DNA from: an uncultured virus (IMG/VR IMGVR_UViG_3300001580_000009)
Lineage: Duplodnaviria; Heunggongvirae; Uroviricota; Caudoviricetes
IMG/VR virus record: IMGVR_UViG_3300001580_000009
Reading direction: 5' to 3' (one strand)
DNA: 64,000 nucleotides
In this document: piece after piece, positions 1 through 25,319 of the stretch
How the letters are laid out: every line of letters begins with the position of its first letter
How positions within the stretch are numbered: position 1 is the stretch's first letter
Program-made: the position numbers and the translations under genes
The notes under the pieces: generated by a model
What the model saw: only the letters and a program-made list of their open reading frames with translations
Databases searched by the model: none
What the model was told of the DNA's origin: nothing

Positions 1-520
1 AGTAAATGTCATCATTAGCTCTTAGTATGTTAGCAGCATCAAAGGCAGGTTCAGTTTCGTTAAGTGCCAATATATCAGGGTTACCGATACAATTCTTATT
101 GTATAATTTTGTTGGGTCAGGTCTTAACGCATATGTTATGTCACCAAACATATGCAACGCTTCTTCCATACTAGTGTATTCATTTACTCTTGATAACAAT
201 GGAGTAGGTGTCGCTAGTATCAAATTTTCATGTATGAATGTGTCTCTTGGGCAATAGTTGTAATATTCTGGTATTACATTTTTGTTCGGGCGATATACCA
301 CAACACCTAAACTTATTAAGAATTCAGTGAGTGTTTGTAAGTCTTCATTTGCTTCATCAATTACTTGTTGTGGATAAGGTCCTTGAGGTATTAAGTTGAC
401 ATTATCAACGTGTGCGTAATTAACAGTTCTCAAGCTGTCATCTAAAAAAGGTATTGTTGCGTAATCTGCTCTACCAACGATAACTGATTTTAACGGGTCC
501 CATTCATTTTTACTTAACAT
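1..520 (-). CDS. Amidinotransferase (glycine/inosamine-phosphate amidinotransferase family), 5' part; runs off the window
   Basis: Not in the ORF track. Manual translation from ATG at 520 gives MLSKNEWDPLKSVIVGRADYA...YYNYCPRDTF...EPAFDAANILR. The NEWDPLxxVIVG, CPRD and PxFDAAN motifs are typical of L-arginine amidinotransferases (AGAT/StrB1). Overlaps the stop of the upstream gene. Confidence 0.85.
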   Translation of the reverse strand, partial: MLSKNEWDPLKSVIVGRADYATIPFLDDSLRTVNYAHVDNVNLIPQGPYPQQVIDEANEDLQTLTEFLISLGVVVYRPNKNVIPEYYNYCPRDTFIHENLILATPTPLLSRVNEYTSMEEALHMFGDITYALRPDPTKLYNKNCIGNPDILALNETEPAFDAANILRANDDIY

Positions 521-1103
521 GGTCAAATACTTTCAATTCACTAATATCAGGATAATCTTTGTATGACCATTGTCTAGGTGGAGTATCTTTTACTTCATGA
601 AATCGTTGTATACCTAGCATAGCCGTTTCAGGTGTCATATAATAATGATAACCTAGCATGTCTACATCTTGTTCAGCCCATGGTATATCAGGACTACGAC
701 CATCGTAACTCATCTTTTTCAACTTAACGTAGTCTTCATCATTATCTACCAATATCATTCCACCGCGACTTAAACCTAAATGTTTCTTAAACTGAAAACT
801 TAAACACATTAATGTGCCGGGTATATATCCATCTTCTTGCCAATGTACCGCAGCATCAACGATGTTTGAGTTGCCAATGAAATAATACTTCTCCCATTGG
901 TTATCAACGAATGCCCAGTTTAAATTTAACTTCTCAAAAGTCATAGGTATACTTAGGTAAGTATGTTTAGGGCATGAAGTTTGTTTTATTCCTAGAAAAC
1001 GTAAACACAATTCAATTGCATGTGTGCAACTATCAGTAGCCACAGCATAAGGAGCATTGTAATAATCTGCTATTAATTCTTCAAATTGTTTTACTAGTTT
1101 CAT
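510..1103 (-). CDS. Short DegT/DnrJ/EryC1/StrS-family PLP-dependent sugar aminotransferase
   Basis: Motifs FEELIADY..AVATDSCTHAIELCL, IVDAA, SFQFKKHL..GGMI (candidate Schiff-base Lys) and GYHYYMTPETAMLG. Only 197 aa. Confidence 0.8.
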   Translation of the reverse strand: MKLVKQFEELIADYYNAPYAVATDSCTHAIELCLRFLGIKQTSCPKHTYLSIPMTFEKLNLNWAFVDNQWEKYYFIGNSNIVDAAVHWQEDGYIPGTLMCLSFQFKKHLGLSRGGMILVDNDEDYVKLKKMSYDGRSPDIPWAEQDVDMLGYHYYMTPETAMLGIQRFHEVKDTPPRQWSYKDYPDISELKVFDHVK

Positions 1104-3385
1104 AATGGAAATTGTGCTTTTCTTGCTCTGCGAATGTCCGCAATAGAAACGCTTTGAACTGCAGGTTCTATCTTAGGTGGAGCAAAATCTTCAGATTGAT
1201 ATGCTTGTTTTTCTGGAATCTCAGCACGTTTAACATTAGAAACTTCTACATGAAATTCTGAGAAGTTGCCCCAATCACCATGACCTTTCCAATGTAGTTC
1301 AAATGAAAAATCAACTGTGGCATTTAATTCCGCTTCCTCACGTAATAAATCAGAGAAGTCTTGACCACTACGTCCCTCGTCGTCACTCCATTTTGGCTTT
1401 GCTAGTTTTCTAGCGCGTTTTGCGGTGTTACTTTGTAAACGTGAGTAGTCTTGCGCGTAGAAAGGACCCTTACGGCCTGCAGGTGGACGCTCACGTTCAT
1501 CATATGGATTATCGATCTGATCAAACTTAATGTTGAAGTCAGCTTCCCATTTACCAGCCTCGTCAATCTTAAATTTATAAACAGCATTGTACATGCCCGG
1601 ACCATACTGTGTTCCGAACTCTTTTAGATCAATCTCAGGGTTGAAATATACCTCAGCAGTGTAACCACCGCGAATCTTCCATAACATACGGAAGAACGGC
1701 CACATTTCATTTACTAAATGATCCGCAAAAGTATTGATATTAGGTTTGATTATCATGTAATCAAACTTTTCGTACTCAATCTCACGCATCAAGGTAGGAT
1801 TGTCGAACTCAATCTTATAATGTTCTTTAGCAAGGTTAACTCTTACGGGATATGAGATAGGCACTTCGGTTAAACCCTGAAACATATCTAACCACATGTG
1901 AATTGTTTTCACTCGGGTCATAACATGTGTGCCGCCCTTTGTAAAGTCATTGCTAATCCAGTGACCTTGATATTTGTGCCATGACACATTGTAGTCATGA
2001 GGATTCTGACCCACGATTGTTTCAGGACCTAGACCATACCCAACACCTAGTCCCATGTTATTGACGTTGTTGTTACGCATACGCCACATGAATGTCATTG
2101 TGTCTGCGAAGTCTTGATAGTCCTCAGTGGGGAATCCTACAATCCAATTAGTAGCACACCAGATGCCTACCTTCTTGCAGTCAATAAAATTCTGTTCCAT
2201 TTCTTGAACAGTAACGCCCTTGTGCATATCATCTAACACTTTTTGACTGCCGCTTTCGCAACCAAAGTTAAACATGATACAACCACCATCGGCTAAATCT
2301 TGTAGATACGCAAGATCCATGCGACCATCGCAACGAGCATAACCTGTCCAACGAACTTTTAGGTCTTTTGTCTTAAGTGCTAAAGCAAACGCACGTAGTT
2401 CTTTTAGGTTACCATTGATTAAACTATCAATGAACCAAATGATATCAGTGCCTTTATTATAGTACAACCATTCTACTTCGGTAACTAAGTCAACACTTTG
2501 ACGTTGACGATATTTCCAGAAGTGTGTTTCTTCGCAGAATGTACACTTTGCTGTACAGCCTCTACTGATTTCACTGTTGACACCGTTAGGTACTTCGTAT
2601 TCGCTGAAGTCAATAGATTCATAGTCTGGCATCGGCAGACCGTTAATGTTAATACGTTGATCTTCAGGCTGTGTTAGTACTCTGGGATATGAAACTTCTT
2701 TCTTTTCTTCAATTTCATCAAGCATTACTAATAGATTGTTTTCACCTTCACCGATAACAATGTAATCGTAATACTTTTGAATGGGGAACCAACTCTTATG
2801 TACATTTGGTCCACCTACAGCAATCTTAATGTGAGGTGCTCTACGCTTGATTTCTTGACACATCCACTTAGTAGGTTCTTCACTGATATAGTAAACACTA
2901 AAGCCCACAACGTCAGGATTCTTTTCAAGAATCTCATCAACTGCTTTGCTTAGTATTGGCTCTAATACTGGGTGAATGTCCTTCATGTAAGTATCACCTA
3001 GCCAGTGCCAACTTGCACTAGGATCCCAAAGTCTAAATGGTAATTTACGGTTCGGCCACCAATCATCACGGAAAGCGTTATATGCTTTTACGTTTAGATC
3101 CATGATATGTGTTTCATACCCTGCGCTCTTAGCGACACCACTCAGTCTAGCCAAGCTGAACGGGGGCATATACGGGCTCCATTCGGGGCATAACACTAGT
3201 ACTAACTTGGTATTACGTGTCTTATAGTCTACATAAACCGGTGTTAAGTTTTTCTGCACCGTAGGTTTGGCATACGGGGCAATGGCTTCCATCATCGCAC
3301 GATGGCGAACATCCGCAACGTCCTCGGTAGGTCTTTCCTTGGGTTTTAATTCATCGGTTGCTAAATGTCTAAGGGTGAAATCCAA
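1100..3385 (-). CDS. Cobalamin-dependent (class B) radical SAM enzyme, putative methyltransferase
   Basis: N-terminal B12-binding-type region (PPFSLARL, DLN, PDVVGFSVY, VGGPN, GEGE), then SRGCTAKCTFC, GCESGSQKVL and WIVGFPTE. TTG start preceded by GGAG. Confidence 0.88.
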   Translation of the reverse strand: MDFTLRHLATDELKPKERPTEDVADVRHRAMMEAIAPYAKPTVQKNLTPVYVDYKTRNTKLVLVLCPEWSPYMPPFSLARLSGVAKSAGYETHIMDLNVKAYNAFRDDWWPNRKLPFRLWDPSASWHWLGDTYMKDIHPVLEPILSKAVDEILEKNPDVVGFSVYYISEEPTKWMCQEIKRRAPHIKIAVGGPNVHKSWFPIQKYYDYIVIGEGENNLLVMLDEIEEKKEVSYPRVLTQPEDQRININGLPMPDYESIDFSEYEVPNGVNSEISRGCTAKCTFCEETHFWKYRQRQSVDLVTEVEWLYYNKGTDIIWFIDSLINGNLKELRAFALALKTKDLKVRWTGYARCDGRMDLAYLQDLADGGCIMFNFGCESGSQKVLDDMHKGVTVQEMEQNFIDCKKVGIWCATNWIVGFPTEDYQDFADTMTFMWRMRNNNVNNMGLGVGYGLGPETIVGQNPHDYNVSWHKYQGHWISNDFTKGGTHVMTRVKTIHMWLDMFQGLTEVPISYPVRVNLAKEHYKIEFDNPTLMREIEYEKFDYMIIKPNINTFADHLVNEMWPFFRMLWKIRGGYTAEVYFNPEIDLKEFGTQYGPGMYNAVYKFKIDEAGKWEADFNIKFDQIDNPYDERERPPAGRKGPFYAQDYSRLQSNTAKRARKLAKPKWSDDEGRSGQDFSDLLREEAELNATVDFSFELHWKGHGDWGNFSEFHVEVSNVKRAEIPEKQAYQSEDFAPPKIEPAVQSVSIADIRRARKAQFPL

Positions 3386-3397
3386 AATTAAGCTCCA

Positions 3398-4519
3398 TTA
3401 ATCTTTGAACAAGTATTCTATATTTAGACTATATCTGTAGTCGTCGTTAGAAAAGAAATGGTGCTGGTTATAATCAACTATGTCCTTTACCTTATATTGC
3501 CATTCAAGCATTTCTTCGGGTGTGAAACTACACAGTCGGCTTATTTCTTTTGTTATTAGATTAAACCGTTCATAATCATCTTCTACGGTGTCGTAATCCT
3601 CGTTAATATAAGGTGCAAACGTTTTAAACCCCTGTTTTCTAAGTGCGGCAAGCGAGAATGGCCTGGCTAATAATATAAATGGATGCGGTAATACAAAACA
3701 CCTATATACTTTTTCAGTAAAGAATATACATTCTAGTTGCTGTGCAATATGATGTTTACCGTTACGGTTATTTTCTGAAAAATAATTAGTTTCGGTTACT
3801 ACTGAAAATGCACTGTTTTGAAAATAGTAGAAATCATCAGGTCTAATGTCAACCGGGTTAGAACGTTCTTCAGTGATATTCAAACGCAACGGCAACATAT
3901 GCCTATTCATGCGAATATGAGGGAAAAGATTTCCTGAATTTTGCAATAATCTATTCCAGTCCCCATCACCTTCAAATGAATAAAAAGCCTTTTGAATAAG
4001 ATCAGTTGCCAACATTTTCTCAAACAACATCAGCCTGTGTTCTCTGCTCAGTTTATTAAAGCAAATAAAATATTTTTCTTTTACTGAGGGCTCATAACGA
4101 ACCATGTATTCATAACCCCTGGAACTTTGTCTAGTATAAAATTTAAACGAATTGCCAGAAAGAACCGATATTCTTTTATTCCAATTCATCTTATCTGCGA
4201 ACTTTGAATACACTTCTTCGGTATCCATAGCCCCTGACAGGTAAAATAAATCTTTGCTATCTACTTCATTTTCTAATACATCTGCTATACGATGTATTTT
4301 CTGTATGATGTGGCCCATGACTCCTTCAGCCATGCCATGGAATAGAAATTTAGATTTACCTTTTTGCTTGGCTTCACGGATATCATTAATGATATCCGTG
4401 AAAGACCTCATCATAAAACTATGTTGACTATGGACGCCAGCATATATCGGGTATATTTTATCATCGAACTGTCTTAATTCTGGCCAGATATTATAGATGT
4501 GTTCGAGGTGGGCATCCAA
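3398..4519 (-). CDS. Glycosyltransferase-like protein (VTET/TEK family, GT10-like C-terminal motif)
   Basis: FICFNKLSREHR...FSVVTET...FFTEKVY...HPFILL...LRKQGFKTF...NEDYD. Paralogous to four other genes in the cluster. TTG start is uncertain. Confidence 0.55.
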   Translation of the reverse strand: MDAHLEHIYNIWPELRQFDDKIYPIYAGVHSQHSFMMRSFTDIINDIREAKQKGKSKFLFHGMAEGVMGHIIQKIHRIADVLENEVDSKDLFYLSGAMDTEEVYSKFADKMNWNKRISVLSGNSFKFYTRQSSRGYEYMVRYEPSVKEKYFICFNKLSREHRLMLFEKMLATDLIQKAFYSFEGDGDWNRLLQNSGNLFPHIRMNRHMLPLRLNITEERSNPVDIRPDDFYYFQNSAFSVVTETNYFSENNRNGKHHIAQQLECIFFTEKVYRCFVLPHPFILLARPFSLAALRKQGFKTFAPYINEDYDTVEDDYERFNLITKEISRLCSFTPEEMLEWQYKVKDIVDYNQHHFFSNDDYRYSLNIEYLFKD

Positions 4520-4530: not shown

Positions 4531-5721
4531 CTACCTCATACTTTTTTTTGGACGAGTGTCTCCGTAATGAACTACTTCAACCCCTTGCAATTCCATCTTA
4601 CGCCATGGATCAATGATCGTGGCATGATTAGGAAATGCAATACGTTCAACGTAATCTTCCCAATAACCAATCAAGAACACTTGAGTCCAATCAGGTTTTA
4701 GGTCTAGATCACCGGTGTGAATGTCGTAATAATTTACAGTGCCGCCATGTTGTTCAATATAATGACCAACTAGCATACTTGCAGAACCGTGCGTATATGG
4801 GACCTTTGGCTTATAGGCTTTACCAACGATAGTAACATTCTTGCCGTATTCTAAGCACTTCTTAGCCATGCGTTCAGCTTGTACTTCTCTGGCACGCATG
4901 ATTGCGTCAAATAGGTCATAGCCTAAGCCTAAACGATCGGCTAGATAGCGTAGTGCGATGTTATCGCGTGGGTGACACGCACCTGCATCACCTAAGCCGG
5001 CCTTCATATAAGCAGGACCTGTAATGCGATAGGTACTCTTTGCTAATGCGTTAGTAACAACATCAACATTCATGTTACCGTTCGTTTCCGCTACGTCTTG
5101 TATCATGTTAACTAGTGCTAGCTTAGTACTGATGAACGTATTATAGAAAATCTTGATAGCTTCCGCTTCATCCCATGTACCAACTTCGTAGCGAGGATCG
5201 TTTTCCATTAATGGGCGATAGAATTCAATTAATTCGTGTGCGTCACCTGTCAAGCTACCATCTTCAGTACCAATGATAACCATTTCAGGATTCTTCATAT
5301 CCCATTTGATCGTGCCCATAGCAATCAAGTATGGATTATAAATGAAACGTGCGTTAGTAATACAAGGCTCTAAATGTCTGCGAACAGTACCCGGTAATAC
5401 AGTGCTAATTAATACGACTAGTTGATTCTTGTTGACATACTTATTAACTTCGTTAAGGATGTCCATAACGATAGTGTAGTCAAAGTCTTTATTGGGTAAA
5501 TGACTACTAGGTGTTTCTCCACCATAGATAGGATCATGCGGTGTGGGTGCAGCGATGAAGATAATATCTCTATCACTAACTGCATCTTGAATCGTACTAC
5601 GCATAGGGAACGCAGGATTTCTAGGTTCTACATCGTAACCTACTACATCATACTTTTCTGCCATTACTTCAGCACAATCTTGGCCTAGTTTACCAACGCC
5701 GATCATCGCCACTTTCTTCAT
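4531..5721 (-). CDS. UDP-glucose/GDP-mannose 6-dehydrogenase family protein
   Basis: IGVGKLG Rossmann motif, IAAPTP, STVLPGT, YNP, AEAIKIFYNTF and GDAGACHPRD (catalytic Cys). SD AGGAGA. Confidence 0.9.
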   Translation of the reverse strand: MKKVAMIGVGKLGQDCAEVMAEKYDVVGYDVEPRNPAFPMRSTIQDAVSDRDIIFIAAPTPHDPIYGGETPSSHLPNKDFDYTIVMDILNEVNKYVNKNQLVVLISTVLPGTVRRHLEPCITNARFIYNPYLIAMGTIKWDMKNPEMVIIGTEDGSLTGDAHELIEFYRPLMENDPRYEVGTWDEAEAIKIFYNTFISTKLALVNMIQDVAETNGNMNVDVVTNALAKSTYRITGPAYMKAGLGDAGACHPRDNIALRYLADRLGLGYDLFDAIMRAREVQAERMAKKCLEYGKNVTIVGKAYKPKVPYTHGSASMLVGHYIEQHGGTVNYYDIHTGDLDLKPDWTQVFLIGYWEDYVERIAFPNHATIIDPWRKMELQGVEVVHYGDTRPKKSMR

Positions 5722-5744: not shown

Positions 5745-5752
5745 TATTTATA
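5745..5752 (-). promoter_or_regulatory. T4-type late promoter TATAAATA
   Basis: Exact T4 late consensus in the short intergenic gap upstream of the dehydrogenase. gp55 is encoded in the window. Confidence 0.7.
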
Positions 5753-5771: not shown

Positions 5772-6569
5772 TTAAAACATATTCTCATATGCAATATCTC
5801 GTATTTTCCATTCACGGGCAAATTCTCTTTCTAAGTCCTTATGGGTCTTACAATATGATAGCCTATCTTCTACGTTTTGCACGTAGTCTTCACTTGCTTG
5901 TGTTAGAGGCATTCCTATTTTTTCTAGATAATTTTTGTACCTGCGTGGTCTAGGGTGCGGATCGTGCATCAAATGCCCCTCATTATTTAAATAAGAAACT
6001 TGTGTAGACCAAGCATTTCCAAATTCCAAATCAAACAACGAAGGATGAAACTTTGTTAAAGTTTTTTCATAGATGGCAAAGGCTTCTTTTTCGATGTGGC
6101 CACCGAAGTCTCCATGCTTACGCTCACAGTCCCAACCCGTAGCCATCATAAAATGAGAATCGCACTCTAATGACTCAATGTATCGTCTAGAGGATTCTAT
6201 TAATGCTAAATCTCTAATAACATAACCTGCCGGATCGGCATACTTTCTCACAAATGCGTCATCATATGTAACATTGTTATAAATATTCCCGCCTAATTTC
6301 CAGCCACCGTCAAACCATCGGTCTTCCCTATAAAATGTACTATACATGACCATTATTAGGTCGTCCTTATTAAAATTAAAACGCATGTTAGCTTCGGCTA
6401 AACGAACCGTTATGAACAAATTGCCGCCGCCTGAACAACCCAAATTATGATATTCGGCGTTTGGCATTTCACTAGACATAACATCCGCCCATGTAGGATA
6501 TATGTGGCTTGTAAAACTACATCCGAAAGCGAAGAAGCGTTTGTATTTGTTAAAATCAATGGATATCAT
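5772..6569 (-). CDS. SGNH/GDSL-like protein (putative acyl-transferase/esterase)
   Basis: FGCSFT (block I variant GCS), NLGCSGGGN (block II) and DPHP (block V DxxH-like). Confidence 0.55.
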   Translation of the reverse strand: MISIDFNKYKRFFAFGCSFTSHIYPTWADVMSSEMPNAEYHNLGCSGGGNLFITVRLAEANMRFNFNKDDLIMVMYSTFYREDRWFDGGWKLGGNIYNNVTYDDAFVRKYADPAGYVIRDLALIESSRRYIESLECDSHFMMATGWDCERKHGDFGGHIEKEAFAIYEKTLTKFHPSLFDLEFGNAWSTQVSYLNNEGHLMHDPHPRPRRYKNYLEKIGMPLTQASEDYVQNVEDRLSYCKTHKDLEREFAREWKIRDIAYENMF

Positions 6570-15926: not shown

Positions 15927-15932
15927 AATAAT

Positions 15933-15939
15933 TATTTAT
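15933..15939 (-). promoter_or_regulatory. Putative late promoter ATAAATA
   Basis: Fills the 12-bp gap between two cluster genes, 6 nt before the ATG. Confidence 0.5.
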
Positions 15940-16919: not shown

Positions 16920-18175
16920 TCGTAGACCTCTTTAAGTTCTGGTACAATATCTACCAATTTTTCTTTTCTAAACTCATCTAACTCATCATTGAATTTAATA
17001 AACTCTTGAACACCGCCCTTATTTTCATCGCCGACGTTTAAGTTGTAGATAATCATCTTGAATCCATTATAGATATCAATGTTATCTTTATAACGATTTT
17101 GATAGACACGATACAATTCAACTAATCTACGCTTTACACTTACAGGCATAATCATGATATTCGCATACCATGGGTTCGTGGCTAAGTTAAAGCGTGGGCT
17201 GGATTTAGTGTCAATGAACCCCTCTTTGACCATGTAATCAAAGAAGTCAGGGAAGGTGAACACGTTCCAAATGCTGATCGTTGGAGTAATCTGAAATTCA
17301 GCATGAGGAACCTGTTCTTTAACTGTTTTAATATTCTTTACAATTTTATTCCAATCAGTTCCTTTTCTAATACACTCAGCTACTTTACCGTGTGCATCTA
17401 AGCTAGCCCAAATCTTTAGCTTGGGGAACTTCTTCCAATATTCAATCAAGTCTTTATCTTTGTAACCTTTTAGTGTACTAAAGTTAGTTGTATAAGTTAA
17501 CTCAATTTGTTCATTTAAACCGTTTTCAATCCAGTAGTCAAGACATTCATAATGTTCAGGGGTGATAATGATTTCGCCACCTGCGAAATAAACCTCAGTC
17601 ACATCCTTTAGATATGGCTTTAATTTATTCATGAAGCTCATTTCTTCGGCAGCGTTGACAACGATCTTAGTTGTTTTGAAATACTTTTCGTAATTTTCCA
17701 TACCCACACGATCTACGAACTCTTGTGCCCATTGACTGGAGCAACCAGGACCACAACTACGACATTTCATATTACAGATGCTACTAAAACGTAGATCCAT
17801 GTACTTCATTTCAAAATGTTTTAAGCTACCATCGTCATTAGTGTTTTCAGCAATGTACTTGACATACTCCAATCCCTTGCGCTTNTTATGACTTTGGCGC
17901 ATAGTCCACGTNCCCATAAGNTCTAGNTCATAGCAACGNTTACATGCTTCNACNGGTTCATCATTCATCATAGCNACACGTAACTTTTTATAGTCACTGC
18001 TATTCATCATTTGAATNATNGANTCNCCATNNTTTAAATCTGCNACNGGCATATTNCTGTCNGCAACACAGCAGGGCATNACTCTGCCATCNGGCCATGA
18101 GTGGAAATGNACCCAGGGCAANACACAGAAATGCTTGCCATGCTTGACAAGACTTTCAACCGTTATAGTATCCAT
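16904..18175 (-). CDS. Radical SAM enzyme with N-terminal twitch-like domain
   Basis: FCxLPW.H...MPCC...ACxRCY, then CNMKCRSC, FAGGE, YTTN and SLD. 22 N bases at 17885-18122. Confidence 0.85.
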   Translation of the reverse strand: MDTITVESLVKHGKHFCXLPWXHFHSWXDGRXMPCCVXDXNMXXADLXXXXXXIQMMNSSDYKKLRXAMMNDEXXEACXRCYXLXLMXTWTMRQSHXKRKGLEYVKYIAENTNDDGSLKHFEMKYMDLRFSSICNMKCRSCGPGCSSQWAQEFVDRVGMENYEKYFKTTKIVVNAAEEMSFMNKLKPYLKDVTEVYFAGGEIIITPEHYECLDYWIENGLNEQIELTYTTNFSTLKGYKDKDLIEYWKKFPKLKIWASLDAHGKVAECIRKGTDWNKIVKNIKTVKEQVPHAEFQITPTISIWNVFTFPDFFDYMVKEGFIDTKSSPRFNLATNPWYANIMIMPVSVKRRLVELYRVYQNRYKDNIDIYNGFKMIIYNLNVGDENKGGVQEFIKFNDELDEFRKEKLVDIVPELKEVYEWAKS

Positions 18176-18178
18176 TGA

Positions 18179-19408
18179 TTACTCCAGTAAATCAGCTAAA
18201 TTATTTAACTCGGGGAACGTTTTCCAGAAACTTTCTTGACGTATTCTATCTAATGATTTGGTGTGCCCCAAGAATTGCTCACGCACACTTGACCATTGAT
18301 CACCCTCAGTAGCAAAGTTTACAGCATCACGGACTAAACGTGACAAACTTGTACCGTCATTTTCATTCGCATCTGCCCATTTTAATGCTTTCTCGGCAGC
18401 TACTGGTTTTAATGATTTTGGTAAGCTCTTTGCGCTATAATATAAAGGGTGAACTGCTAGATATAGACTATGATACCAATCTTCTCTGCGAATAATGTTC
18501 TTATCTTTAAGGTACTGATAGAACTCACCGATTGTAGAATAATTGAAAATTGAGAATACAGTATTCATTTGAAAACTTACATAGTCCAATTCTCTGAAAG
18601 TAAGCAAATTGCTTTCTACTTTACCCCAATCAGTTCCGCTACGTAAGAATTCAGCACGTTCACCATAATGGTCAACACTACAACTTAGTTCAATGCGTTT
18701 AAAGTGTTTCCATAATTCTAAGATATCATGCTTCTTATAACGTATATTGCTAGCATTAGTGTTGTAGCGAAGTGTAATGTCCGTTCTACCTGTACGGATC
18801 ATTTCTTCTAAGATAGTATAATGCTCATCGGTAATTAGCGGTTCGCCTCCCGCGAAATACGCTAGATCAATATGTTCAACGTGAGTTAATACTTCTTTCA
18901 GTAAATCACCCTTACCATCATCAGCATGAATTACGATAGGGTGATTCTTATCGTAATTCTTGTTCATTTCCATACCCCATTGACTACTGAATTCGCTTCC
19001 GCAAGTTCTACACTTGAAGTTACAGATATTGCTGAAACGAATATCAAAGTAGCGCATCTTGAATTCATCTACTGTACCATCTTCTTTGGTTGTAGGCACA
19101 ACTTCATCAAAGTACTTTCCAAAATGCTCTTTACTATAGTTACGGAAACTATGGGGACCTGCTTCTTCGTGCTTATAGCAGAAATTACAAATGTCATTCT
19201 TACGTTCATTCAACATATCCAAACGAAGTTGTTTCATTTGTTCGCTGTTGAATGCTTTATGTAAGGTAATCTCTTTTGTATTTCCAAACGGTTTAGTATA
19301 GTCGTTACTACAGCAAGGGTAGATATCACCTTTGGGTGTCACGTTCAAATGAACCCACGGGAACATGCAAAATGTTTTGCTATCGTTTAGTAAAAAATTC
19401 TTGTCCAT
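18179..19408 (-). CDS. Radical SAM enzyme with N-terminal twitch-like domain
   Basis: FCMFPWVH...YPCC...CNFCYKHE, then CNFKCRTC and FAGGEPL. Probable start MDKNF at 19408 (TAATG coupling). Confidence 0.88.
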   Translation of the reverse strand: MDKNFLLNDSKTFCMFPWVHLNVTPKGDIYPCCSNDYTKPFGNTKEITLHKAFNSEQMKQLRLDMLNERKNDICNFCYKHEEAGPHSFRNYSKEHFGKYFDEVVPTTKEDGTVDEFKMRYFDIRFSNICNFKCRTCGSEFSSQWGMEMNKNYDKNHPIVIHADDGKGDLLKEVLTHVEHIDLAYFAGGEPLITDEHYTILEEMIRTGRTDITLRYNTNASNIRYKKHDILELWKHFKRIELSCSVDHYGERAEFLRSGTDWGKVESNLLTFRELDYVSFQMNTVFSIFNYSTIGEFYQYLKDKNIIRREDWYHSLYLAVHPLYYSAKSLPKSLKPVAAEKALKWADANENDGTSLSRLVRDAVNFATEGDQWSSVREQFLGHTKSLDRIRQESFWKTFPELNNLADLLE

Positions 19409-20679
19409 TAAACAGGCCACAATCTCTTTTTATCAGGTAAAGCCAACGTAGCAATTTCGGGAAAAGTTTGTTTAAAATTTTCACCGCGTAGTTTATCTAA
19501 TCTTCGTATTTCATCTCTAAATTTGTTCTTCTGCTGTTCCCATGTATCCTGAGAAGACACCCACGGTATTGTTACTTCCAATTGATTAACTTTTTCTTTG
19601 CTAAACTTTTTGCTACGCATTAAGGTAATAGCACCTTTCATTTTAGTTTTTCCGATAGCTTTCAATTCAGGGGGCAATATATGTGCTGTTAGATGCTCGG
19701 GCGTAGACATACAATATAATGTATATACGCTATCCAATGCATCATACAAACCCTTGTCTATCAAATATGAGTAAAATTCATAAATGGTCAAGTAGTTGAA
19801 TACACTAAGAACCGTATTCATTTGAACTGACAAGAATGGCGTTTGTTTAGCTATATGGAAGTTTTCTTCTACTCTTGCCCAGTTGGTCCCGTGACGAATG
19901 TATTCTGCTCTGTCACCATAATGGTCAATGCTAGCGTAGATATCAATACGTTTCTTGAAATGCTTCCACAAACTCAACAGGTCTTTATCTTTGAACTTAA
20001 GATTGGATAAGTTTGTATTGTAACGCAAGTTGATATCTGTTCTGCCACGCCTGATCATCTCCTCAAGCATAATGTAATGCTCATCAGTGATCAATGGTTC
20101 GCCACCGGCAAAATATGCCGTCTCAATATGATCAATTTGATCTATGACATCCTTTAAGAATTCTTTATTGTCATTCTTGGGAATTTGTCTAGCATAGAAT
20201 ACTTTAGACTTTAAATCTTCTTGTTCCCATTGCGTACTAAAACCTGATCCGCACGTGCGGCACTTAAAGTTACAGATATTGCTGAAACGGATATCAAAAT
20301 AACGCATCTTGAAATCAGTTAACTCACCCGTTTCGGGATTGGTATATCCCATTACTTCGTCAAAATGATGCTTATGTTCGTCATTGAACATTTGCCTAAA
20401 GCTACGAACTTTTTGTTTCTCATGGTTGTGGCATTTAACACATTCTGGATTCTTAACTCCACTAAGCATATCTAAGCGAAGCTGTTTCATTTTAGGACTA
20501 TTTACTAATTCAGAGAGGCGCTGTGTCCTAGAATTACCCACTCCATCTTCTGTTGCACACGATTCGGCAATACAACAAGGAGCAGCGACACCCGTAGGTG
20601 TTGTATGGATGTGTGTCCACGGTACCATACAAAACGTCTGGCTTTGTTCTAGCATTAGCTTTTTAAATACGTCACTCAT
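19408..20679 (-). CDS. Radical SAM enzyme with N-terminal twitch-like domain
   Basis: FCMVPWTH...APCC...CVKCHNHE, then CNFKCRTC and FAGGEPL. Close paralog of the next gene. Confidence 0.88.
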   Translation of the reverse strand: MSDVFKKLMLEQSQTFCMVPWTHIHTTPTGVAAPCCIAESCATEDGVGNSRTQRLSELVNSPKMKQLRLDMLSGVKNPECVKCHNHEKQKVRSFRQMFNDEHKHHFDEVMGYTNPETGELTDFKMRYFDIRFSNICNFKCRTCGSGFSTQWEQEDLKSKVFYARQIPKNDNKEFLKDVIDQIDHIETAYFAGGEPLITDEHYIMLEEMIRRGRTDINLRYNTNLSNLKFKDKDLLSLWKHFKKRIDIYASIDHYGDRAEYIRHGTNWARVEENFHIAKQTPFLSVQMNTVLSVFNYLTIYEFYSYLIDKGLYDALDSVYTLYCMSTPEHLTAHILPPELKAIGKTKMKGAITLMRSKKFSKEKVNQLEVTIPWVSSQDTWEQQKNKFRDEIRRLDKLRGENFKQTFPEIATLALPDKKRLWPV

Positions 20680-22082
20680 AATGGGTTCAACCGATTAGTT
20701 TCTTGGCACAATCTATAAAAACCCTTCATTTCAGGGAACACACTTAACAGATCAGTGTCGCGGCGCTCGTCTAATTCATTGAACCAATTATAAAAGTCTC
20801 GTCTACCTTCAATTAGTTTTTCTTCGGAATAAACTGTATCACGCATATAATCAACAACACGCTTGAACTTTTCATATTCAATAGAACTGAACTTGTTCCC
20901 AGCTTTGTCGTCAACGTTATCTTCCATAAACTTGAGTGCTTCATACATATAGGGCATGAACTCATCTTTAGGTAGAATGTTCATATCGTACTGAATGGGT
21001 TCACGAAGGTATGGTGTATCAAAGCGTACACGATGCTGCGGATTAACAGGGTCATCGTACCAACCATAAATATTGCGCCATTCTAAAATCTTCTCAAGCA
21101 ATGACTTAAAGGTGGTCACTGAGAAGATATTGAATGTCATCATGAAAGTGATTGGACTATTCGTACCAGTTAGATATGTGTGAAAGTTTTCTTCCCATAC
21201 GTCTAGGTCAAGCCCTGTACGAATATACTCAGCACGTGGACCCCAGGTATCCATACTTGTGAATAGTTTGAAGCTTTGAATTTTGTTTTCAGTTGTGAGT
21301 TTCTTTACCTTATCAGCAAGTCTTTGAATTAAAACGTTTTTAGTACCTAAGTTACTATTGACGTTTAACTCTAACCAAGGCATAGGATCACTGTCAATTG
21401 ATTCTAATAGTTGCCATGTACTCTTGTGTAGAGTAGGTTCGCCGCCCGTAACACGCAAGATGTTTAGTGTCTTACGCATTTCAGGCCACCATTCCCAGAA
21501 TGCATCAACGTACGGGTTTTCTTCTTCGCGTTGATACAAACGCATCCAGTCAATGTCACAACGATGATTCTTGACCGAAGTAACGGGGCCAAAGTCTTCA
21601 ATCTCTTTATAGAAACGTGTACTATACTTGGGATGACAATAACCACATTTGAAATTACATTCGTTACCGAAGTTGATTTCAATGTATTCTGGATTAATGT
21701 TTTGATCCCACGGTCCTTTAACCGTTTGTTCAAATCGGTCTTCTGTAAAAATAGAACTATTTCTAATATGCCTATCACTGAGATAGTCGGGACCCATGGC
21801 TTCAATGTTCCAGCAATACTGACAACCTTCAGGCTTGCCGCCCTCAAGCATTTGCTTACGTTCAAGCTTTTTGTATGAGGTATTGTGCAATGCGCTAGGA
21901 TTATCTTTCAATTCTGATAACGGTATCTTATGTGGGCGCGGGTGATAACAACTATGTGTCTCACCCGATTGAAGATACATTGTTACATGATGCCATTTAG
22001 CAAGGCAGAAAGTAGGACCGGCTTCGTTTTCGACTTTGATCCTAATTGTTTTAATTCGTTTTTGTTCGTGACTGTCGCTCAT
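20676..22082 (-). CDS. Radical SAM enzyme with N-terminal twitch-like domain (divergent paralog)
   Basis: FCLAKWHH...HSCYH...GCQYCW, then CNFKCGYC and TGGEPT. Probable start at 22082 (TAATG coupling). Confidence 0.85.
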   Translation of the reverse strand: MSDSHEQKRIKTIRIKVENEAGPTFCLAKWHHVTMYLQSGETHSCYHPRPHKIPLSELKDNPSALHNTSYKKLERKQMLEGGKPEGCQYCWNIEAMGPDYLSDRHIRNSSIFTEDRFEQTVKGPWDQNINPEYIEINFGNECNFKCGYCHPKYSTRFYKEIEDFGPVTSVKNHRCDIDWMRLYQREEENPYVDAFWEWWPEMRKTLNILRVTGGEPTLHKSTWQLLESIDSDPMPWLELNVNSNLGTKNVLIQRLADKVKKLTTENKIQSFKLFTSMDTWGPRAEYIRTGLDLDVWEENFHTYLTGTNSPITFMMTFNIFSVTTFKSLLEKILEWRNIYGWYDDPVNPQHRVRFDTPYLREPIQYDMNILPKDEFMPYMYEALKFMEDNVDDKAGNKFSSIEYEKFKRVVDYMRDTVYSEEKLIEGRRDFYNWFNELDERRDTDLLSVFPEMKGFYRLCQETNRLNPL

Positions 22083-23032
22083 TACCAACCTTCAATTTTT
22101 CGAATAACTTCCATTTCAGTAATCAACGGACCCAAATTATGCTTATCAGCATTATAGTGACGCTTGAAGAACTTACTTTGATCTGGTGTCAGTGTGCAAA
22201 TGGGTAGCCCTAATTTTGCGCTTAGTTGTTCGCCGATAAAATCTGCCTCAATCATAGGATCTTTTTCTTTGTACTCATCCCACATTTCAACATAGTTATC
22301 AAACCACTGAACCTTAGTGTGTTCCCAATCAGTTAGCATGGTCATGTATGTACCTAGACGAGCACCATAGATAGCCCAATGCCCATTGTCTGCATCAGCA
22401 CCTACGTTATGCCAGATAGTAAGATTATTTAGATTGCGCGTAGCTACCGTTTCTTTGAATGCGTCAATAGATGGTCTAGAACCACGATCTAAACACATCT
22501 TAACACCCTCACGAAATCCTGCGCGCCAGGCTTGGAATGGTGTATAGTTGGGATATGTAGTTGAGTAGCAATCATACATTGCCCAATAGAGGTTATCTTT
22601 ACTATCTAAGCAGAAATCAGCAATACGAGTAATGTCACCGTCAGTTTGTGCTTCATGTGTTTTCATATTGGCCACATAAGTCTTTGTCCAAGAACTCATG
22701 CCACCGTTACCATAACGAAGACCATTAATAGCATTAATAGACTTCCAACGAAATTGTGCTTTGTGGTAATTGGCATCCTTACCAGTGAAGTCTAGTTGAA
22801 TATTGAAGAATGATTCTTCGGGCAACGTGTCACCGTCAATTAGAATGAATCTCTCAGTATCACTAGCTTCACCTGCAGCTTTATGTGCTGCATCACTTCC
22901 TTTAACGCCGTCTACTCTAACTGCCCAAGGGATCATGTTCTTAATCTTGAGCCAAAATTCTTCTTTTTGTGGCTCGTCGTAAGAAAGGTAAATAACTGAA
23001 AGGTCGGCAACGTCAATGATATCTTCACGCAT
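22082..23032 (-). CDS. GT-A fold glycosyltransferase-like protein
   Basis: VIYLSYDEP...VDGVKGSDAAHKAA...FILIDGD (DxD)...YGNGG...QAWRAGFREGVK. Confidence 0.5.
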   Translation of the reverse strand: MREDIIDVADLSVIYLSYDEPQKEEFWLKIKNMIPWAVRVDGVKGSDAAHKAAGEASDTERFILIDGDTLPEESFFNIQLDFTGKDANYHKAQFRWKSINAINGLRYGNGGMSSWTKTYVANMKTHEAQTDGDITRIADFCLDSKDNLYWAMYDCYSTTYPNYTPFQAWRAGFREGVKMCLDRGSRPSIDAFKETVATRNLNNLTIWHNVGADADNGHWAIYGARLGTYMTMLTDWEHTKVQWFDNYVEMWDEYKEKDPMIEADFIGEQLSAKLGLPICTLTPDQSKFFKRHYNADKHNLGPLITEMEVIRKIEGW

Positions 23033-23041
23033 AATAAATCC

Positions 23042-23401
23042 TCATCTAATCTCGTAGATGTTAAGTTTCCACTTTTGTTTCTTTATAGGGTCTTTACTAG
23101 AAACAACAACACTAATGTCTTCCATAGCACACACACGCCCTTTGGACTTGTCTGGCATTAATTTGGTAATTACGGCGTGCGGTGCTACGGTTGACAACTT
23201 TCCATCGACAACTCTAACATCAGGTCTTGCCTGAGCGAATGTCATAGCGTCGATTATAATATAATTCCCGTCTAACTTCTCGCATGTATATGTGATCACA
23301 TGCCCTTTTTCATCGTAGTAAAGTCTGAACTCTGGCTTTTCAAGCTTCGGTGCTTCCCAAATGATTACATAATCTTGATTGTCATTTTGTTCTGTTGTCA
23401 T
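23042..23401 (-). CDS. Hypothetical protein
   Basis: 119-aa ORF, translationally coupled (ATGA) to the upstream gene. Confidence 0.7.
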   Translation of the reverse strand: MTTEQNDNQDYVIIWEAPKLEKPEFRLYYDEKGHVITYTCEKLDGNYIIIDAMTFAQARPDVRVVDGKLSTVAPHAVITKLMPDKSKGRVCAMEDISVVVSSKDPIKKQKWKLNIYEIR

Positions 23402-24195
23402 TTGTAAACTTTCATAAGTTTATCAGAAAAGTTCTTGATGTTATAGTGAAAAGGATAACGCTGGGGGAATGTGTTTATCCTGATCGTATGAGGCAGTAGT
23501 TCGTATATCAGTGTGTCAGTCCAGTTCTCAGTGGGCAATCCATTGATAAACTGTTTCATGTGAACCATGCTCATGTCTTTGAATTGAGGCAGTGTTGTAA
23601 GCTCTTCCCCAACAATGTGACTGGCTAACGCATATACCCAGTCAGTTGTTGCCTTTTCGTCAGCATTACACTGCAATACTGCTCTGTAATCTTCCCAGTT
23701 TTCAAAAATAGTTTTAACATTTTGAAAGAACCATTCGGCTACAAGACCTTTCTTGAAATAAGTAATAGCATTATAGGTATCGGGTAACTTATTATCTGTT
23801 ATAAATCTACGGTAAGCTTTTACATCACTTATTTCTTGTTTGAAATTGCGAATAGTAGTAGAAATGACCACTTCACGTTTAGTTAAAACGTCCCACCAAT
23901 AATCAATTGATGTCGGGACAAACATGTCCGCTTCTAGTTTAATCGTATATTCATATGGGCTAGCTTCATATACTTGCCAGTCATTGATTAGTTTCCAATC
24001 ACTGTCGGATGCAAGGTCACCATAGGGTAACTTAACCACTTGGTCAAATGCCTTTGACTTCTTAACGTCATTTGATATAAGAGTAACATTGGCATCAGGC
24101 ATTACTCTTTTGATGCTTTTAGCCAAAACTTCTGCGCACTGAACATAGTTAACTTTGTCTGTGTTTTGCGCTAACACTACAAAACCTTTATTCAT
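23398..24195 (-). CDS. GT8-like glycosyltransferase
   Basis: GFVVLAQN..YVQCAEVLAKSIK..VTLIS...SPYEYTIKLEADM...MVHMK. Paralog of the upstream gene. Confidence 0.6.
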   Translation of the reverse strand: MNKGFVVLAQNTDKVNYVQCAEVLAKSIKRVMPDANVTLISNDVKKSKAFDQVVKLPYGDLASDSDWKLINDWQVYEASPYEYTIKLEADMFVPTSIDYWWDVLTKREVVISTTIRNFKQEISDVKAYRRFITDNKLPDTYNAITYFKKGLVAEWFFQNVKTIFENWEDYRAVLQCNADEKATTDWVYALASHIVGEELTTLPQFKDMSMVHMKQFINGLPTENWTDTLIYELLPHTIRINTFPQRYPFHYNIKNFSDKLMKVYK

Positions 24196-25018
24196 TGATT
24201 AACTCCACAAAGTTATCTTTGTTCATAACGTGAAAGTCCATGTCTTTTATCGTTATGTATTCTTTACGAATCTTACCCTTTTGCCAATTGTCAAATAGTA
24301 TCGTATACTTAGTATTAAATGGATCATTGTTTTCAGCATAGATATGTGTGTTCTTACCTATGTGCATTAGATTCCAAGGAATAATGTCATTGGGTATAGT
24401 ACAATGGCCATTGGCAATTCTTAGTGCTAATGTCAGTGCATAGTCGTTTCTATATACACCAGCAACGAAACTATGAATGTCCGCATAATGTGCGTAATTC
24501 TCTTGAACCATTTTTAAACAATTAAAAATCTGTTCTGCCCTACTTGTTTTCTTAAACGCAACAACAGTAGCCCACAATGTCTTATAGCTATATGAGCTAA
24601 GAACTTCTTGGGCTGCTCCGGGCTGCATAAAGAAACCTGTATTGTCATGACAGCAGAAATCGTCCATTACATCAAATGTTTTTAACACTTTATCAGAATT
24701 GACCATATAGTCAACGTCCAATAATAGAGTTTCATCATACGGGCTTAGATCATACGCTTGATATCTACCCTTATTAATCCAAACACTGTAATCTCTTACA
24801 TTCGTAGTATCAGGTGTTACTTTAATTACCTTGTCGAATTTATAAGTTTGACGCAATGGTATAGAACTGTCGTCAGTAACTAGCGTGACAGGTAGATTTA
24901 AAAAGTGGTTAATGCGTCTGGCTGTATAAACAGCCATATCGTAATAATTATACTTAGGTGAATTGAAGGCGAAAAGTATCGCGCCCCGATTTATCTTTTT
25001 GTTTCTAGTTCTTGCCAT
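24188..25018 (-). CDS. GT8-like glycosyltransferase
   Basis: GAILFAFN..YYDMAVYTARRI..VTLVTD...SPYDETLLLDVDY (DxD)...RNDYA...FHVMNK. Confidence 0.62.
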   Translation of the reverse strand: MARTRNKKINRGAILFAFNSPKYNYYDMAVYTARRINHFLNLPVTLVTDDSSIPLRQTYKFDKVIKVTPDTTNVRDYSVWINKGRYQAYDLSPYDETLLLDVDYMVNSDKVLKTFDVMDDFCCHDNTGFFMQPGAAQEVLSSYSYKTLWATVVAFKKTSRAEQIFNCLKMVQENYAHYADIHSFVAGVYRNDYALTLALRIANGHCTIPNDIIPWNLMHIGKNTHIYAENNDPFNTKYTILFDNWQKGKIRKEYITIKDMDFHVMNKDNFVELINE

Positions 25019-25296
25019 TCAGTGTGCCACTCTTTCATTACGGTTTGATATGTTTCTTGTAATTTGGTTAATAACTTACTTCTATCAACTTCTACAGGGT
25101 TCCCGAAAGTATCTATCATGACTACTTGTTTACCCTTCATAGAACTAAGGAAAGATATGGTTGGCATGTCGGCGGACCATAGCCCACCTTGTTCAGCTAC
25201 GATTAGCTTATTGTTGTATTTTTCTTTTAAATAGGCTTTAGCAGAATTATGACTAAATCTGGCTTTGGCTTCAGAAATTAAGATTTTAGTATCCAT
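24991..25296 (-). CDS. Hypothetical protein, first gene of the modification cluster
   Basis: 101-aa ORF with SD AGGAG and an upstream CTAAATA box. Confidence 0.7.
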   Translation of the reverse strand: MDTKILISEAKARFSHNSAKAYLKEKYNNKLIVAEQGGLWSADMPTISFLSSMKGKQVVMIDTFGNPVEVDRSKLLTKLQETYQTVMKEWHTEWQELETKR

Positions 25297-25312
25297 CGAT
25301 TACTCCTAAGAG

Positions 25313-25319
25313 TATTTAG
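25313..25319 (-). promoter_or_regulatory. Putative late promoter variant CTAAATA
   Basis: Intergenic, 16 nt before the ATG of the first cluster gene. Confidence 0.45.

Follow-up and report, generated by a model that had tools for sequence, protein, structure and literature searches.

Background

Large, variable genomic regions that combine tail fibres with sugar enzymes have been described in T4-like myophages of aquatic habitats. For T4-like pelagimyophages and cyanomyophages, Zaragoza-Solas et al. 2020 (PMC7029224) define a 'host recognition cluster' in which tail fibres occur together with glycosyltransferases (GTs, of which GT8 is the commonest), UDP-glucose 6-dehydrogenase and radical SAM cassettes, and they propose that this cluster alters the host O-chain. 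Nishimura et al. (PMC5332604) report that one environmental T4-like genome encodes 12 radical SAM enzymes. In this study, a 64,000-nucleotide stretch of DNA from an uncultured virus (IMG/VR record IMGVR_UViG_3300001580_000009), referred to as a whole as the window, was analysed for an island of 23 minus-strand open reading frames (ORFs) that lies directly downstream of fibre-like genes, at positions 2 to 25,296. Very probably, this island builds and heavily tailors a sugar-based product; we favour the reading that it is a late cytoplasmic pathway decorating the virion fibres with a radical-edited glycan, to which the comparisons below give slightly less than an even chance.

In content and position the island agrees with the definition of the host recognition cluster, including fibres, GTs, a sugar dehydrogenase and radical SAM enzymes, and it is a richer, jumbo-phage version of a genomic feature that is already in print (PMC7029224). 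Unlike the published cluster, it belongs to a jumbo lineage and has a conserved nine-gene head, four paralogs of the NF033640 family, two cobalamin radical SAM enzymes, a GDP-mannose 3,5-epimerase (GME) homolog and an amidinotransferase; furthermore, whereas a change in the host O-chain was proposed for the published cluster (PMC7029224), the island in the window has no recognised membrane or export step.

A related cassette is carried by the cultured Synechococcus phage S-SCSM2R (PQ898602; L091), in which positions 229579-236332 encode three GTs, a short DegT-like protein, a radical SAM enzyme, another GT, a 2-oxoglutarate (2OG) oxygenase, an amidinotransferase and a GT2 enzyme. Five annotated GT genes and those for the DegT-like protein, the radical SAM enzyme and the amidinotransferase form one co-directional run; the DegT-like protein (195 amino acids, aa) is 55% identical to that of the window, and the amidinotransferase is 58.7% identical to the ortholog, in the related genome G001, of the window's partial gene. 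The S-SCSM2R cassette is smaller (~10 genes), and 2OG oxygenases replace most of the radical SAM enzymes. Its authors interpret it as a cassette for antibiotic synthesis (PMC12801897).

An initial annotation of the window, made by a model from the sequence alone, had knowledge of no characterised phage pathway of this complexity. This statement holds for biochemically characterised pathways, none of which was found in literature searches (supplements not covered), but not for the genomic feature itself, since fibre-adjacent islands of GT and radical SAM genes had been published (PMC7029224), as had the smaller S-SCSM2R cassette (PMC12801897). The 'Moraphage' paper (PMC12619734) was considered and rejected as a counterpart; it concerns a different lineage and makes no mention of radical SAM enzymes.

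Three further groups of described systems provide points of comparison. Viruses that glycosylate their own particles resemble the island in having their own cytoplasmic GTs and sugar-nucleotide enzymes, which in the phage examples lie beside structural genes. Chlorovirus PBCV-1 and mimivirus carry glycosylation genes, and mycobacteriophages reportedly bear capsid and tail-tube glycans, as Freeman is said to have described in 2023. PBCV-1 and mimivirus transferases were among the fold matches of the island GT models. These viruses differ from the island in that their transferases are few and that radical SAM, cobalamin and amidino chemistry is missing, and for the island it is we who infer particle glycosylation. 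The second group is that of aminoglycoside-type pathways: StrB1 (1bwd), BtrN (4m7t), TokK (7kdx) and CysS (9n1b) have direct sequence similarity to island proteins, and from them the logic of oxidation, transamination, amidination or carbamoylation and C-methylation is borrowed below. Such pathways differ in that they are encoded in bacterial secondary-metabolite clusters and not in phage structural regions, and no cyclitol-forming enzyme was seen in the island. The third group consists of the T4 alpha- and beta-glucosyltransferases (1y6f, 1c3j), which are phage-encoded and are the top fold matches of an island GT-B model, with a sequence identity of 7%.

Results and Discussion

Phage lineage and organisation of the island

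PHROG searches identified T4-type baseplate genes in the window (gp6-like, 47451-50822; gp25-like, 50875-51330; gp5-like, 51348-54749), a gp55-like late sigma gene at 59360-60262 (phrog_12791, E 8.6e-73) and, after it, gp47/gp46-like nuclease genes. The gp6-like protein shared no more than 30-34% identity with its counterparts in cultured jumbo phages (Sinorhizobium Phosso, Serratia BF, Erwinia pEa_SNUABM phages and Agrobacterium Atu_ph07), and a megablast search with window positions 1-25,000 found no match among cultured phages. Based on these sequence comparisons, the window is part of an uncultured T4-like jumbo phage. The complete relative G001, which has terminal repeats, is 364,247 bp long, and genomes of this jumbo lineage measure about 350 kb.

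Every gene in positions 1-59,240 of the window is on the minus strand. The 22 junctions between the 23 island ORFs comprise 14 overlaps, seven gaps of at most 12 nucleotides (nt) and one gap of 50 nt, which bears out the earlier description of a set of co-directional, mostly overlapping genes beside the fibre genes. The block of ~25 kb that the initial annotation had delimited is present as well, but the island is truncated by the window start and runs on in relatives, where it exceeds 30 kb. In G001, the part beyond the position corresponding to this edge of the window encodes an amidinotransferase, a 594-aa protein with a GT-B domain at its C-terminus, a DUF6071 protein, a carbamoyltransferase of the NodU type and a further protein of 1,234 aa. 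The G+C content is 0.34-0.40 in the island block and 0.37-0.46 in the structural part. Neither sigma-70-like sites (64 versus 66.3 expected) nor terminator-like sites (10 versus 11.5 expected) are enriched.

Twenty-six proteins of the window were scanned for domains, motifs and hydropathy. No Pfam family was matched at E ≤ 0.001 by 13 of the 23 island ORFs, and NCBIfam at E ≤ 0.01 added for these 13 nothing but a marginal sub-threshold match (E 0.005) for 6556-8637. No membrane-like segments were found in the 26 proteins (best 19-residue hydropathy <1.6), and in the Pfam and NCBIfam scans none of the island genes of the window was recognised as encoding an initiating lipid-carrier transferase, a flippase, a polymerase or a transporter; therefore, a cytoplasmic acceptor, or use of host machinery, is favoured.

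Radical SAM enzymes

The prediction of seven radical SAM enzymes was confirmed. Seven of the 26 scanned proteins contained both the CxxxCxxC motif and a Pfam Radical_SAM match (E ≤ 0.001), although three of the seven scored under Pfam's own cut-off. The seven genes are as follows.

16904-18175, 18179-19420, 19408-20679 and 20676-22088, minus strand: four tandem N-terminal-twitch radical SAM paralogs (NF033640)
15939-16919, minus strand: short radical SAM enzyme, 326 aa, with no auxiliary domain recognised; CxxxCxxC at residue 25
9808-11751, minus strand: cobalamin-dependent radical SAM C-methyltransferase-like protein (TokK/CysS-like), 647 aa; B12-binding PF02310 and PF04055
1100-3385, minus strand: B12-binding radical SAM enzyme, 761 aa; Pfam B12-binding and Radical_SAM domains, CxxxCxxC at residue 277

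The four tandem paralogs scored 330.1, 372.0, 378.4 and 318.5 bits against NF033640 (N_Twi_rSAM), the cut-off of which is 170, and are thus members of this family. In their alignment, four cysteines (C17, C35, C80 and C83) are invariant and precede C136, C140 and C143 of the CNFKC..C core, so that a twitch-type four-cysteine domain stands before the CxxxCxxC core as in NF033640. Pfam placed SPASM at residues 17-84, ahead of Radical_SAM at residues 128-303, in two of the four paralogs, and the twitch domain of BtrN (4m7t) aligned to positions 12-84 of the paralog profile with an E value of 1.2e-4. No characterised member of NF033640 was found in the literature searches (supplements not covered). 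Among cultured phages, the twitch enzymes had only matches of 22.6-23.5% identity (RsoM2USA, Vibrio K566/K567) and no close homologs; the region of RsoM2USA that holds the distant homolog is annotated as hypothetical throughout.

The short radical SAM enzyme scored 29.4 bits against a Pfam cut-off of 29.5 and 27.8 bits against NF033640, of which it is not a member, and it had no match among Protein Data Bank (PDB) sequences. Its median identity is 81% over the 29 related loci in which more than half of the query was covered.

The 647-aa protein matched TokK (7kdx) over residues 25-490 with an E value of 2e-82 and CysS (9n1b) with an E value of 2.2e-54. By the NCBIfam model of the KedN5 family (NF033712) it is related but not a member, with 259.6 bits against a cut-off of 700. 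By its domain pair and full-length sequence similarity, it is an enzyme of the TokK/CysS type of class B, while the 761-aa protein conforms to the domain pair only. The sole PDB match of the latter was 9ccb (E 4.6e-6), and every NCBIfam match to class B radical SAM models fell below its cut-off.

Sugar-nucleotide and amine enzymes

The remaining enzymes with clear family assignments belong to families of sugar-nucleotide and amine chemistry.

13630-14598, minus strand: GDP-mannose 3,5-epimerase homolog; matches 2c59 and Pfam Epimerase (E 2.2e-41)
4531-5721, minus strand: nucleotide-sugar 6-dehydrogenase of the UDP-glucose/GDP-mannose family; PF00984 and PF03721
510-1103, minus strand: short DegT/DnrJ/EryC1-like enzyme dependent on pyridoxal phosphate (PLP), 197 aa; PF01041, E 2.6e-17
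2-526, minus strand: StrB1-type (inosamine-phosphate-like) amidinotransferase, N-terminal 175 aa, truncated by the window start; assigned through the G001 ortholog

All four had been named in the initial annotation, and the searches bore out all four assignments, that of the partial amidinotransferase through its G001 ortholog. The epimerase scored 338.5 bits (E 4.1e-100) against GDP-mannose 3,5-epimerase 2c59 and at most 95 bits against UDP-glucose 4-epimerase, UXS and GDP-fucose synthase, the next class having an E value of 5e-26; this assignment refers to full-length similarity and not to a residue-by-residue inspection of the catalytic site. The dehydrogenase, besides its two Pfam domains, matched phrog_9148 (E 1.9e-97) and scored 144.9 bits against TIGR03026, under the cut-off of 189.8. 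The aminotransferase is a short DegT-like protein, and both its short length and its SFQ(F/Y)KKH lysine motif are retained in G001 and S-SCSM2R.

The product of 2-526 shares 57% identity with residues 1-174 of the protein encoded by a 326-aa ORF of G001, which matched StrB1 (1bwd, E 4.9e-69), HsvA (7.5e-39) and AGAT (1.3e-33). The C-terminal catalytic cysteine stretch of the G001 protein, GGCFHCVTLD, aligns to GGGFHCATLD; the window holds residues 1-175 only. Distant amidinotransferase homologs, 25-28% identical, were also seen in 12 Campylobacter phage records (H20-H31: CP220, CPt10, CP20 and others).

Glycosyltransferase-like, SGNH-like and small proteins

The other twelve island genes encode eight GT-like proteins, two SGNH-like proteins and two small conserved proteins.

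3398-4519, minus strand: predicted GT-B fold GT of family X, the member modelled with AlphaFold2
6556-8637, minus strand: two predicted tandem family-X GT-B domains in 693 aa, at residues 31-312 and 362-664 (phmmer, profile)
8624-9832, minus strand: family-X GT-B paralog with 17 single N bases (phmmer, profile)
12614-13630, minus strand: family-X GT-B paralog (phmmer, profile)
14595-15926, minus strand: family-X GT-B paralog (phmmer, profile)
22082-23032, minus strand: GT-A-like protein with an invariant DGD motif (D66 G67 D68)
23398-24195 and 24188-25018, minus strand: two paralogs (paralogy E 1e-10) with a GT8 / nucleotide-diphospho-sugar-transferase-like lead
11738-12604, minus strand: SGNH/GDSL-like protein, weakly supported; consensus GCSWTQGEGG, GxxGxGN, EGAHPT
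5772-6569, minus strand: SGNH-like protein at the motif level only; consensus GCSFT, G.SGGGN, DGHP
23042-23401, minus strand: conserved 119-aa protein with 23 orthologs; no family match
24991-25296, minus strand: conserved 101-aa protein, the first island gene, defined by alignment; no family match

All-against-all phmmer and profile comparisons grouped five paralogous genes (3398, 6556 with two domains, 8624, 12614 and 14595) into one family of six domains, termed family X. An AlphaFold2 model of 3398-4519, computed from a 27-sequence alignment, had a predicted local distance difference test (pLDDT) score of 83 and a predicted TM-score (pTM) of 0.85. In a Foldseek search with this model, all 20 matches at E ≤ 0.001 were GT-B enzymes, the top ones with E values of 1e-4, and all 50 of the 50 rows returned by VIA-align, which does not rely on Foldseek, were GT-B as well, with Z scores from 11.9 to 8.4. 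The fold model thus supports the assignment of the five family-X genes as GT-B glycosyltransferases. With regard to their CAZy family, GT10 is a lead only, at a score of 0.77. In G001, a family-X GT-B domain ends the 594-aa protein at 8443-10227 (L043), the N-terminal part of which has no family.

The protein encoded by 22082-23032 is the most conserved enzyme of the island head apart from the radical SAM enzymes. Its model had a pLDDT of 63.7, and residues 4-143 aligned in VIA to GT-A and nucleotidyltransferase folds with Z scores of at most 7.3; Foldseek gave no match at E ≤ 0.001. Its family comprises 1,512 representatives at E ≤ 0.001 after 50% clustering. Among 25 relatives sampled from the best 150, five were domains located behind a GT-B of the GT1/GT28 type, two had weak GT2 matches and 18 had no family. 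Also in G001, a domain like that of 22082 ends the 1,234-aa protein at 13310-17014 (L043), again behind an N-terminal part without a family.

For the 23398/24188 pair, which matched nothing in Pfam, NCBIfam or PDB sequences, the sole support comes from ESM-Atlas language-model neighbours at 0.96 with PF03407/PF01501 and 153-168 shared features. A homolog search with 24188 found 1,202 relatives at E ≤ 0.001, and none of the 120 listed had a functional name or a Pfam domain. Because 24188 has this many relatives and the 22082 family this many representatives, these proteins point to a widespread phage function. Profiles of the GT-B family, of 22082, of the 24188 pair and of 11738 had no significant match among PDB sequences.

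Lipase_GDSL was matched below threshold in five of 11 orthologs of 11738 (E 0.004-0.13) and DUF6071 in four of 11 (E 0.007-0.044), and the profile of 11738 reached the PDB GDSL entry 4iyj with an E value of only 0.45. An hhalign comparison of 5772-6569 with the 11738 family gave a probability of 56%, and GDSL matches were found in none of its five orthologs. The alignments of the 101-aa and 119-aa proteins showed no cysteine-rich or repeat cores.

The earlier counts of eight GT-like genes and two SGNH-like proteins are reproduced, with support of graded strength: five of the former are GT-B enzymes according to the fold model and the three GT-A-like calls are weaker, while the SGNH motifs are visible in both of the latter but only sub-threshold GDSL matches, in one gene only, go with them.

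Strain-level variation may be present in two of the enzyme genes. Thirty-nine isolated N bases are located in two stretches, 8921-9208 and 17885-18122, and those on third codon positions number 21 of 22 in the radical SAM gene and nine of 17 in the GT-B gene 8624-9832. The assembly seems to have collapsed variation between strains at these sites, for the most part synonymous in the radical SAM gene and to a smaller extent in the GT-B gene.

Late-promoter-like boxes

Boxes of the form TATAAATA correspond to the T4 late promoter consensus, and in T4 the gp55-dependent promoters drive late genes. Three such boxes lie in or at the border of the island.

25313-25319, minus strand: CTAAATA variant box, 23 nt ahead of the first island gene
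15933-15939, minus strand: ATAAATA late-promoter-like box, overlapping the end of the upstream gene, 13 nt ahead of the start codon of the GT-B gene 14595-15926
5745-5752, minus strand: TATAAATA late-promoter-like box, 30 nt ahead of the dehydrogenase start codon

According to the initial annotation the same late box occurs at all three places; this is so at 15933 and 5745, but the box at 25313 is a variant. ATAAATA is scarcer in the window than expected (13 copies on both strands versus 27.9), and each of its nine minus-strand copies falls in the 60 nt ahead of a minus-strand start codon, positions that make up 3.3% of the window. Among 20 7-mers of the same composition, at most four of 11 copies were at such positions, with the exception of the overlapping TAAATAA (seven of nine). 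Among the genes preceded by ATAAATA are two baseplate genes (gp6-like and gp25-like), the fibre-like gene (box 29 nt upstream), the dehydrogenase gene and the GT-B gene 14595-15926. The variant (T)CTAAATA(C), ~21 nt before the start of the first island gene, was conserved in all 23 of 23 related loci, the box of the fibre gene in 18 of 19 and the box at 15933 in nine of 16.

By analogy with T4, and given the gp55-like gene in the window, these boxes are probably gp55-dependent late promoters, and their placement supports late expression of the island.

Fibre-like genes and other genes upstream of the island

The genes between the baseplate region and the island include the candidate acceptors of a glycan.

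25345-26295, minus strand: 316-aa protein, 29% Ser/Thr and 12% Gly, duplicated in some relatives; no family match
26306-27532, minus strand: fibre/spike-like protein with a C-terminal intramolecular-chaperone domain (Peptidase_G2 IMC; PF11962, 28.3 bits versus cut-off 25)
27564-28184, minus strand: conserved 206-aa protein of the upstream structural block
28184-28345, minus strand: 53-aa ORF with two overlapping ATAAATA boxes just upstream, at 28348-28358
28362-47423, minus strand: giant 6,353-aa ORF between the gp6-like baseplate gene and the fibre-like genes; marginal Pfam matches only (FG-GAP, CBM_5_12)

The N-terminus of the 26306-27532 product matched phrog_14394, a virion structural protein. 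The 25345-26295 product is probably fibre-related, and the 6,353-aa ORF presumably encodes a giant baseplate or fibre protein. A composition scan for stretches that might accept glycosylation gave nothing decisive beyond the 29% Ser+Thr of 25345-26295. The C-terminal part of the 53-aa ORF (LKIFDPNTQKVIVQK) resembles the motif at the N-terminus of the 27564-28184 product (LKIYDPNNGEIFVDK), which is encoded next to it.

Conservation in related phages and homologs in bacteria

An IMG/VR scan with one twitch enzyme gave 37 related viral loci. The order of nine genes, i.e. the 27564 gene, the fibre-like gene, 25345, 24991, 24188, 23398, 23042, 22082 and the first twitch enzyme, was intact in 21 of these 37 loci, including the complete 364-kb genome, and eight of the nine genes were in order in two more; three loci had no close counterpart of the first twitch enzyme (22% identity). 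Gene content beyond the short radical SAM gene varies among relatives. The initial annotation had proposed a comparison of whether the cluster always abuts the fibre genes; the arrangement is intact in the 21 loci, and the head is missing in 11 distant ones. Since 21 of 37 related viral contigs have the fibre genes and the island head in this order, the block is, as judged from sequence, native phage DNA, and the chimeric join with host DNA that the initial annotation had raised as an alternative is ruled out.

Bacterial relatives of the twitch enzymes were found in 41 loci and are 22-37% identical, except for one 1.7-kb contig of a metagenome-assembled genome (MAG) at 49% (L047). These loci belong mainly to Bacteroidota and Bdellovibrionota, with single ones in Elusimicrobia and Polyangiaceae and five marginal ones elsewhere. 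One to three adjacent radical SAM genes were present in seven contexts of twitch relatives, in contrast to the four-copy phage array of NF033640 genes described here.

Two of the seven contexts, Haliscomenobacter MAG contigs (L068/L069, G006 C1/C3; 183 kb and 148 kb), were considered as host homologs and rejected, as they are related jumbo-phage contigs with the island. They carry a gp6-like gene, 53-54% identical, ~20 kb upstream of the cassette, and because of this gene they were dropped as bacterial context. Their binning with Haliscomenobacter is a weak hint of a Saprospiraceae host.

The twitch paralog 20676-22088, which diverges most among the four, has relatives of 45-56% identity in MAGs of Pseudobdellovibrionaceae and other Bdellovibrionota (L074-L080). 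The other three paralogs reach 21-28% in the same loci and at most 37% in any bacterial locus except L047. This pattern suggests a separate origin or a more recent exchange for 20676-22088.

Proposed pathway

The favoured reading is that of an island of more than 30 kb which encodes soluble cytoplasmic enzymes only and which would be read late from T4-type (gp55) promoters together with the upstream tail-fibre genes. In such a pathway, the 6-dehydrogenase would provide a uronic acid, and the GDP-mannose 3,5-epimerase would provide GDP-L-galactose or GDP-L-gulose. The GT-A-type enzymes of the head (22082, 23398 and 24188) may then begin a glycan on the acceptor, which the five variable GT-B paralogs would lengthen. 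In the subsequent tailoring, the twitch radical SAM paralogs are predicted to oxidise or epimerise sugar carbons in the manner of BtrN, and the short DegT-like enzyme could aminate the resulting keto group. The StrB1-like amidinotransferase, together with the carbamoyltransferase in relatives, would cap amines or hydroxyls, the cobalamin radical SAM enzymes would C-methylate, and the SGNH-like proteins may add or remove acyl groups. The acceptor would most likely be a virion protein, either the fibre-like proteins or the giant protein just upstream, resulting in a particle with a variable, unusual glycan. The initial annotation had likewise described an assembly line for a glycan on virion proteins or on the host surface; the enzyme content, the late boxes, the gp55-like gene and the fibre linkage lend this description partial support.

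Several observations weigh against decoration of the virion. The assignment is weak for three of the eight GT-like proteins and for both SGNH-like ones, and we infer the order of the chemical steps from family resemblance only. The top two VIA matches of the GT-B model were the T4 beta- and alpha-glucosyltransferases (Z 11.9 and 11.0), enzymes that act on DNA. The conserved head is absent from 11 of the 37 loci, which form a clade farther removed (60-68% identity in the first twitch enzyme); upstream of the island in this clade, only one of 18 ORFs matches a PHROG (tail-fibre assembly). In S-SCSM2R, the sub-cassette is located away from the fibre genes. Of five truly bacterial contexts of twitch relatives, two are polysaccharide or sugar clusters, one is beside a PMT-type GT-C and two are among housekeeping genes. 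Finally, similar islands have been interpreted in print as modifying the host O-chain (PMC7029224).

Alternative functions

This last reading, in which the island would remodel the host surface (O-antigen, capsule or S-layer glycan) via a host lipid carrier and export system, for instance to block adsorption by competitors or the re-binding of progeny to debris, is the alternative that survives best, and we consider it unlikely. It is in line with the two sugar clusters and the PMT-type GT-C neighbour among the five bacterial loci, and the variable gene content would suit an arms race over the surface. However, neither a membrane protein nor an initiating phosphoglycosyl transferase, a flippase, a polymerase or a transporter was identified in the window's part of the island, the island head is tightly linked to the fibre genes, and late-type boxes in a lytic T4-like phage would allow little time for a useful change of the surface.

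That the product is a small molecule of aminoglycoside type, free or secreted, which acts on the host or on competitors (e.g. a C-methylated pseudo-oligosaccharide with guanidino or carbamoyl groups), appears quite improbable. The StrB1-type amidinotransferase, the DegT-type enzyme, the BtrN-like twitch enzymes and the cobalamin radical SAM methyltransferases form an aminoglycoside-like set, to which relatives add a carbamoyltransferase of the NodU/TobZ type, and the related trio in S-SCSM2R was labelled 'antibiotic synthesis genes' by its authors (PMC12801897). No sugar-phosphate cyclase, inositol enzyme, exporter or self-resistance gene, however, was seen among the window's island genes in Pfam and NCBIfam; eight transferase-like genes would be many for a small glycoside, and the conserved position behind the fibre genes would be left without an explanation.

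Hypermodification of the phage DNA, in which the island would attach a complex glycan as on the hydroxymethyl-pyrimidines of T-even and some metagenomic phages, is very improbable. The T4 enzymes at the top of the GT-B fold matches speak for this function, and viral transferases reportedly make multi-sugar DNA glycans, according to 2024 work ascribed to Pyle. The Z scores of the T4 glucosyltransferases are, on the other hand, within ~1 of those of many unrelated GT-B enzymes, which at Z 10-10.7 are tied with them. The near-complete genomes G001 and G005 have one gene each of the PF00303 thymidylate-synthase family, with no second, hydroxymethylase-like copy found, and the G001 gene passes the thymidylate synthase equivalog cut-off (338.3 bits versus 327); a TGT/DpdA match is absent from both genomes. 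A TET/JBP search gave no match either, but carries little weight because its positive control was silent. In addition, T4 expresses its DNA-modification genes early, and the late boxes and the fibre linkage of the island are unlike this.

SPASM/twitch and class B radical SAM enzymes are typical maturases of ribosomally synthesised and post-translationally modified peptides (RiPPs). That the radical SAM enzymes act directly on a peptide or protein in a RiPP- or proteusin-like manner (C-methylation, epimerisation or cross-links, e.g. on the fibres or on the 101-/119-aa products) with the sugar enzymes as a separate module, is hardly credible, since the sub-threshold matches of the 761-aa and 647-aa proteins to NCBIfam RiPP C-methyltransferase models and the two conserved small proteins of the island head are outweighed by best-defined matches to small-molecule and sugar enzymes (TokK, CysS, BtrN twitch), by the lack of cysteine-rich or repeat cores in the two small proteins and by the interleaving and translational coupling of the radical SAM genes with the sugar enzymes.

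Conclusions

The analyses presented here describe an island in an uncultured T4-like jumbo phage in which sugar-nucleotide enzymes, GT-like proteins and seven radical SAM enzymes are encoded directly behind fibre-like genes. In its most specific form, the favoured reading of virion decoration would have the fibres or the 6,353-aa protein carry a glycan that is edited after assembly by radical SAM oxidation, followed by transamination, amidination or carbamoylation, and C-methylation, which is possible though on the unlikely side. If this is true, chemistry in the style of aminoglycosides would take place on a virion glycoprotein, and through the variable GT-B set the coat would differ from one phage lineage to the next. 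Such a glycan would be the first of any virus to be tailored by radical SAM enzymes, and NF033640 would receive its first function.

For enzymology, the island offers a compact, soluble setting for the function of N-terminal-twitch radical SAM enzymes, and it hints at cobalamin-dependent methylation of sugars and at amidination of sugars outside antibiotic pathways. Phage S-SCSM2R, which is cultured and has a reduced cassette, is a possible experimental model. If the product is located on the virion, phage particles could carry complex glycans of the phage's own making, with consequences for host recognition, for the recognition and removal of phages in nature and for the evolution of fibre diversity.

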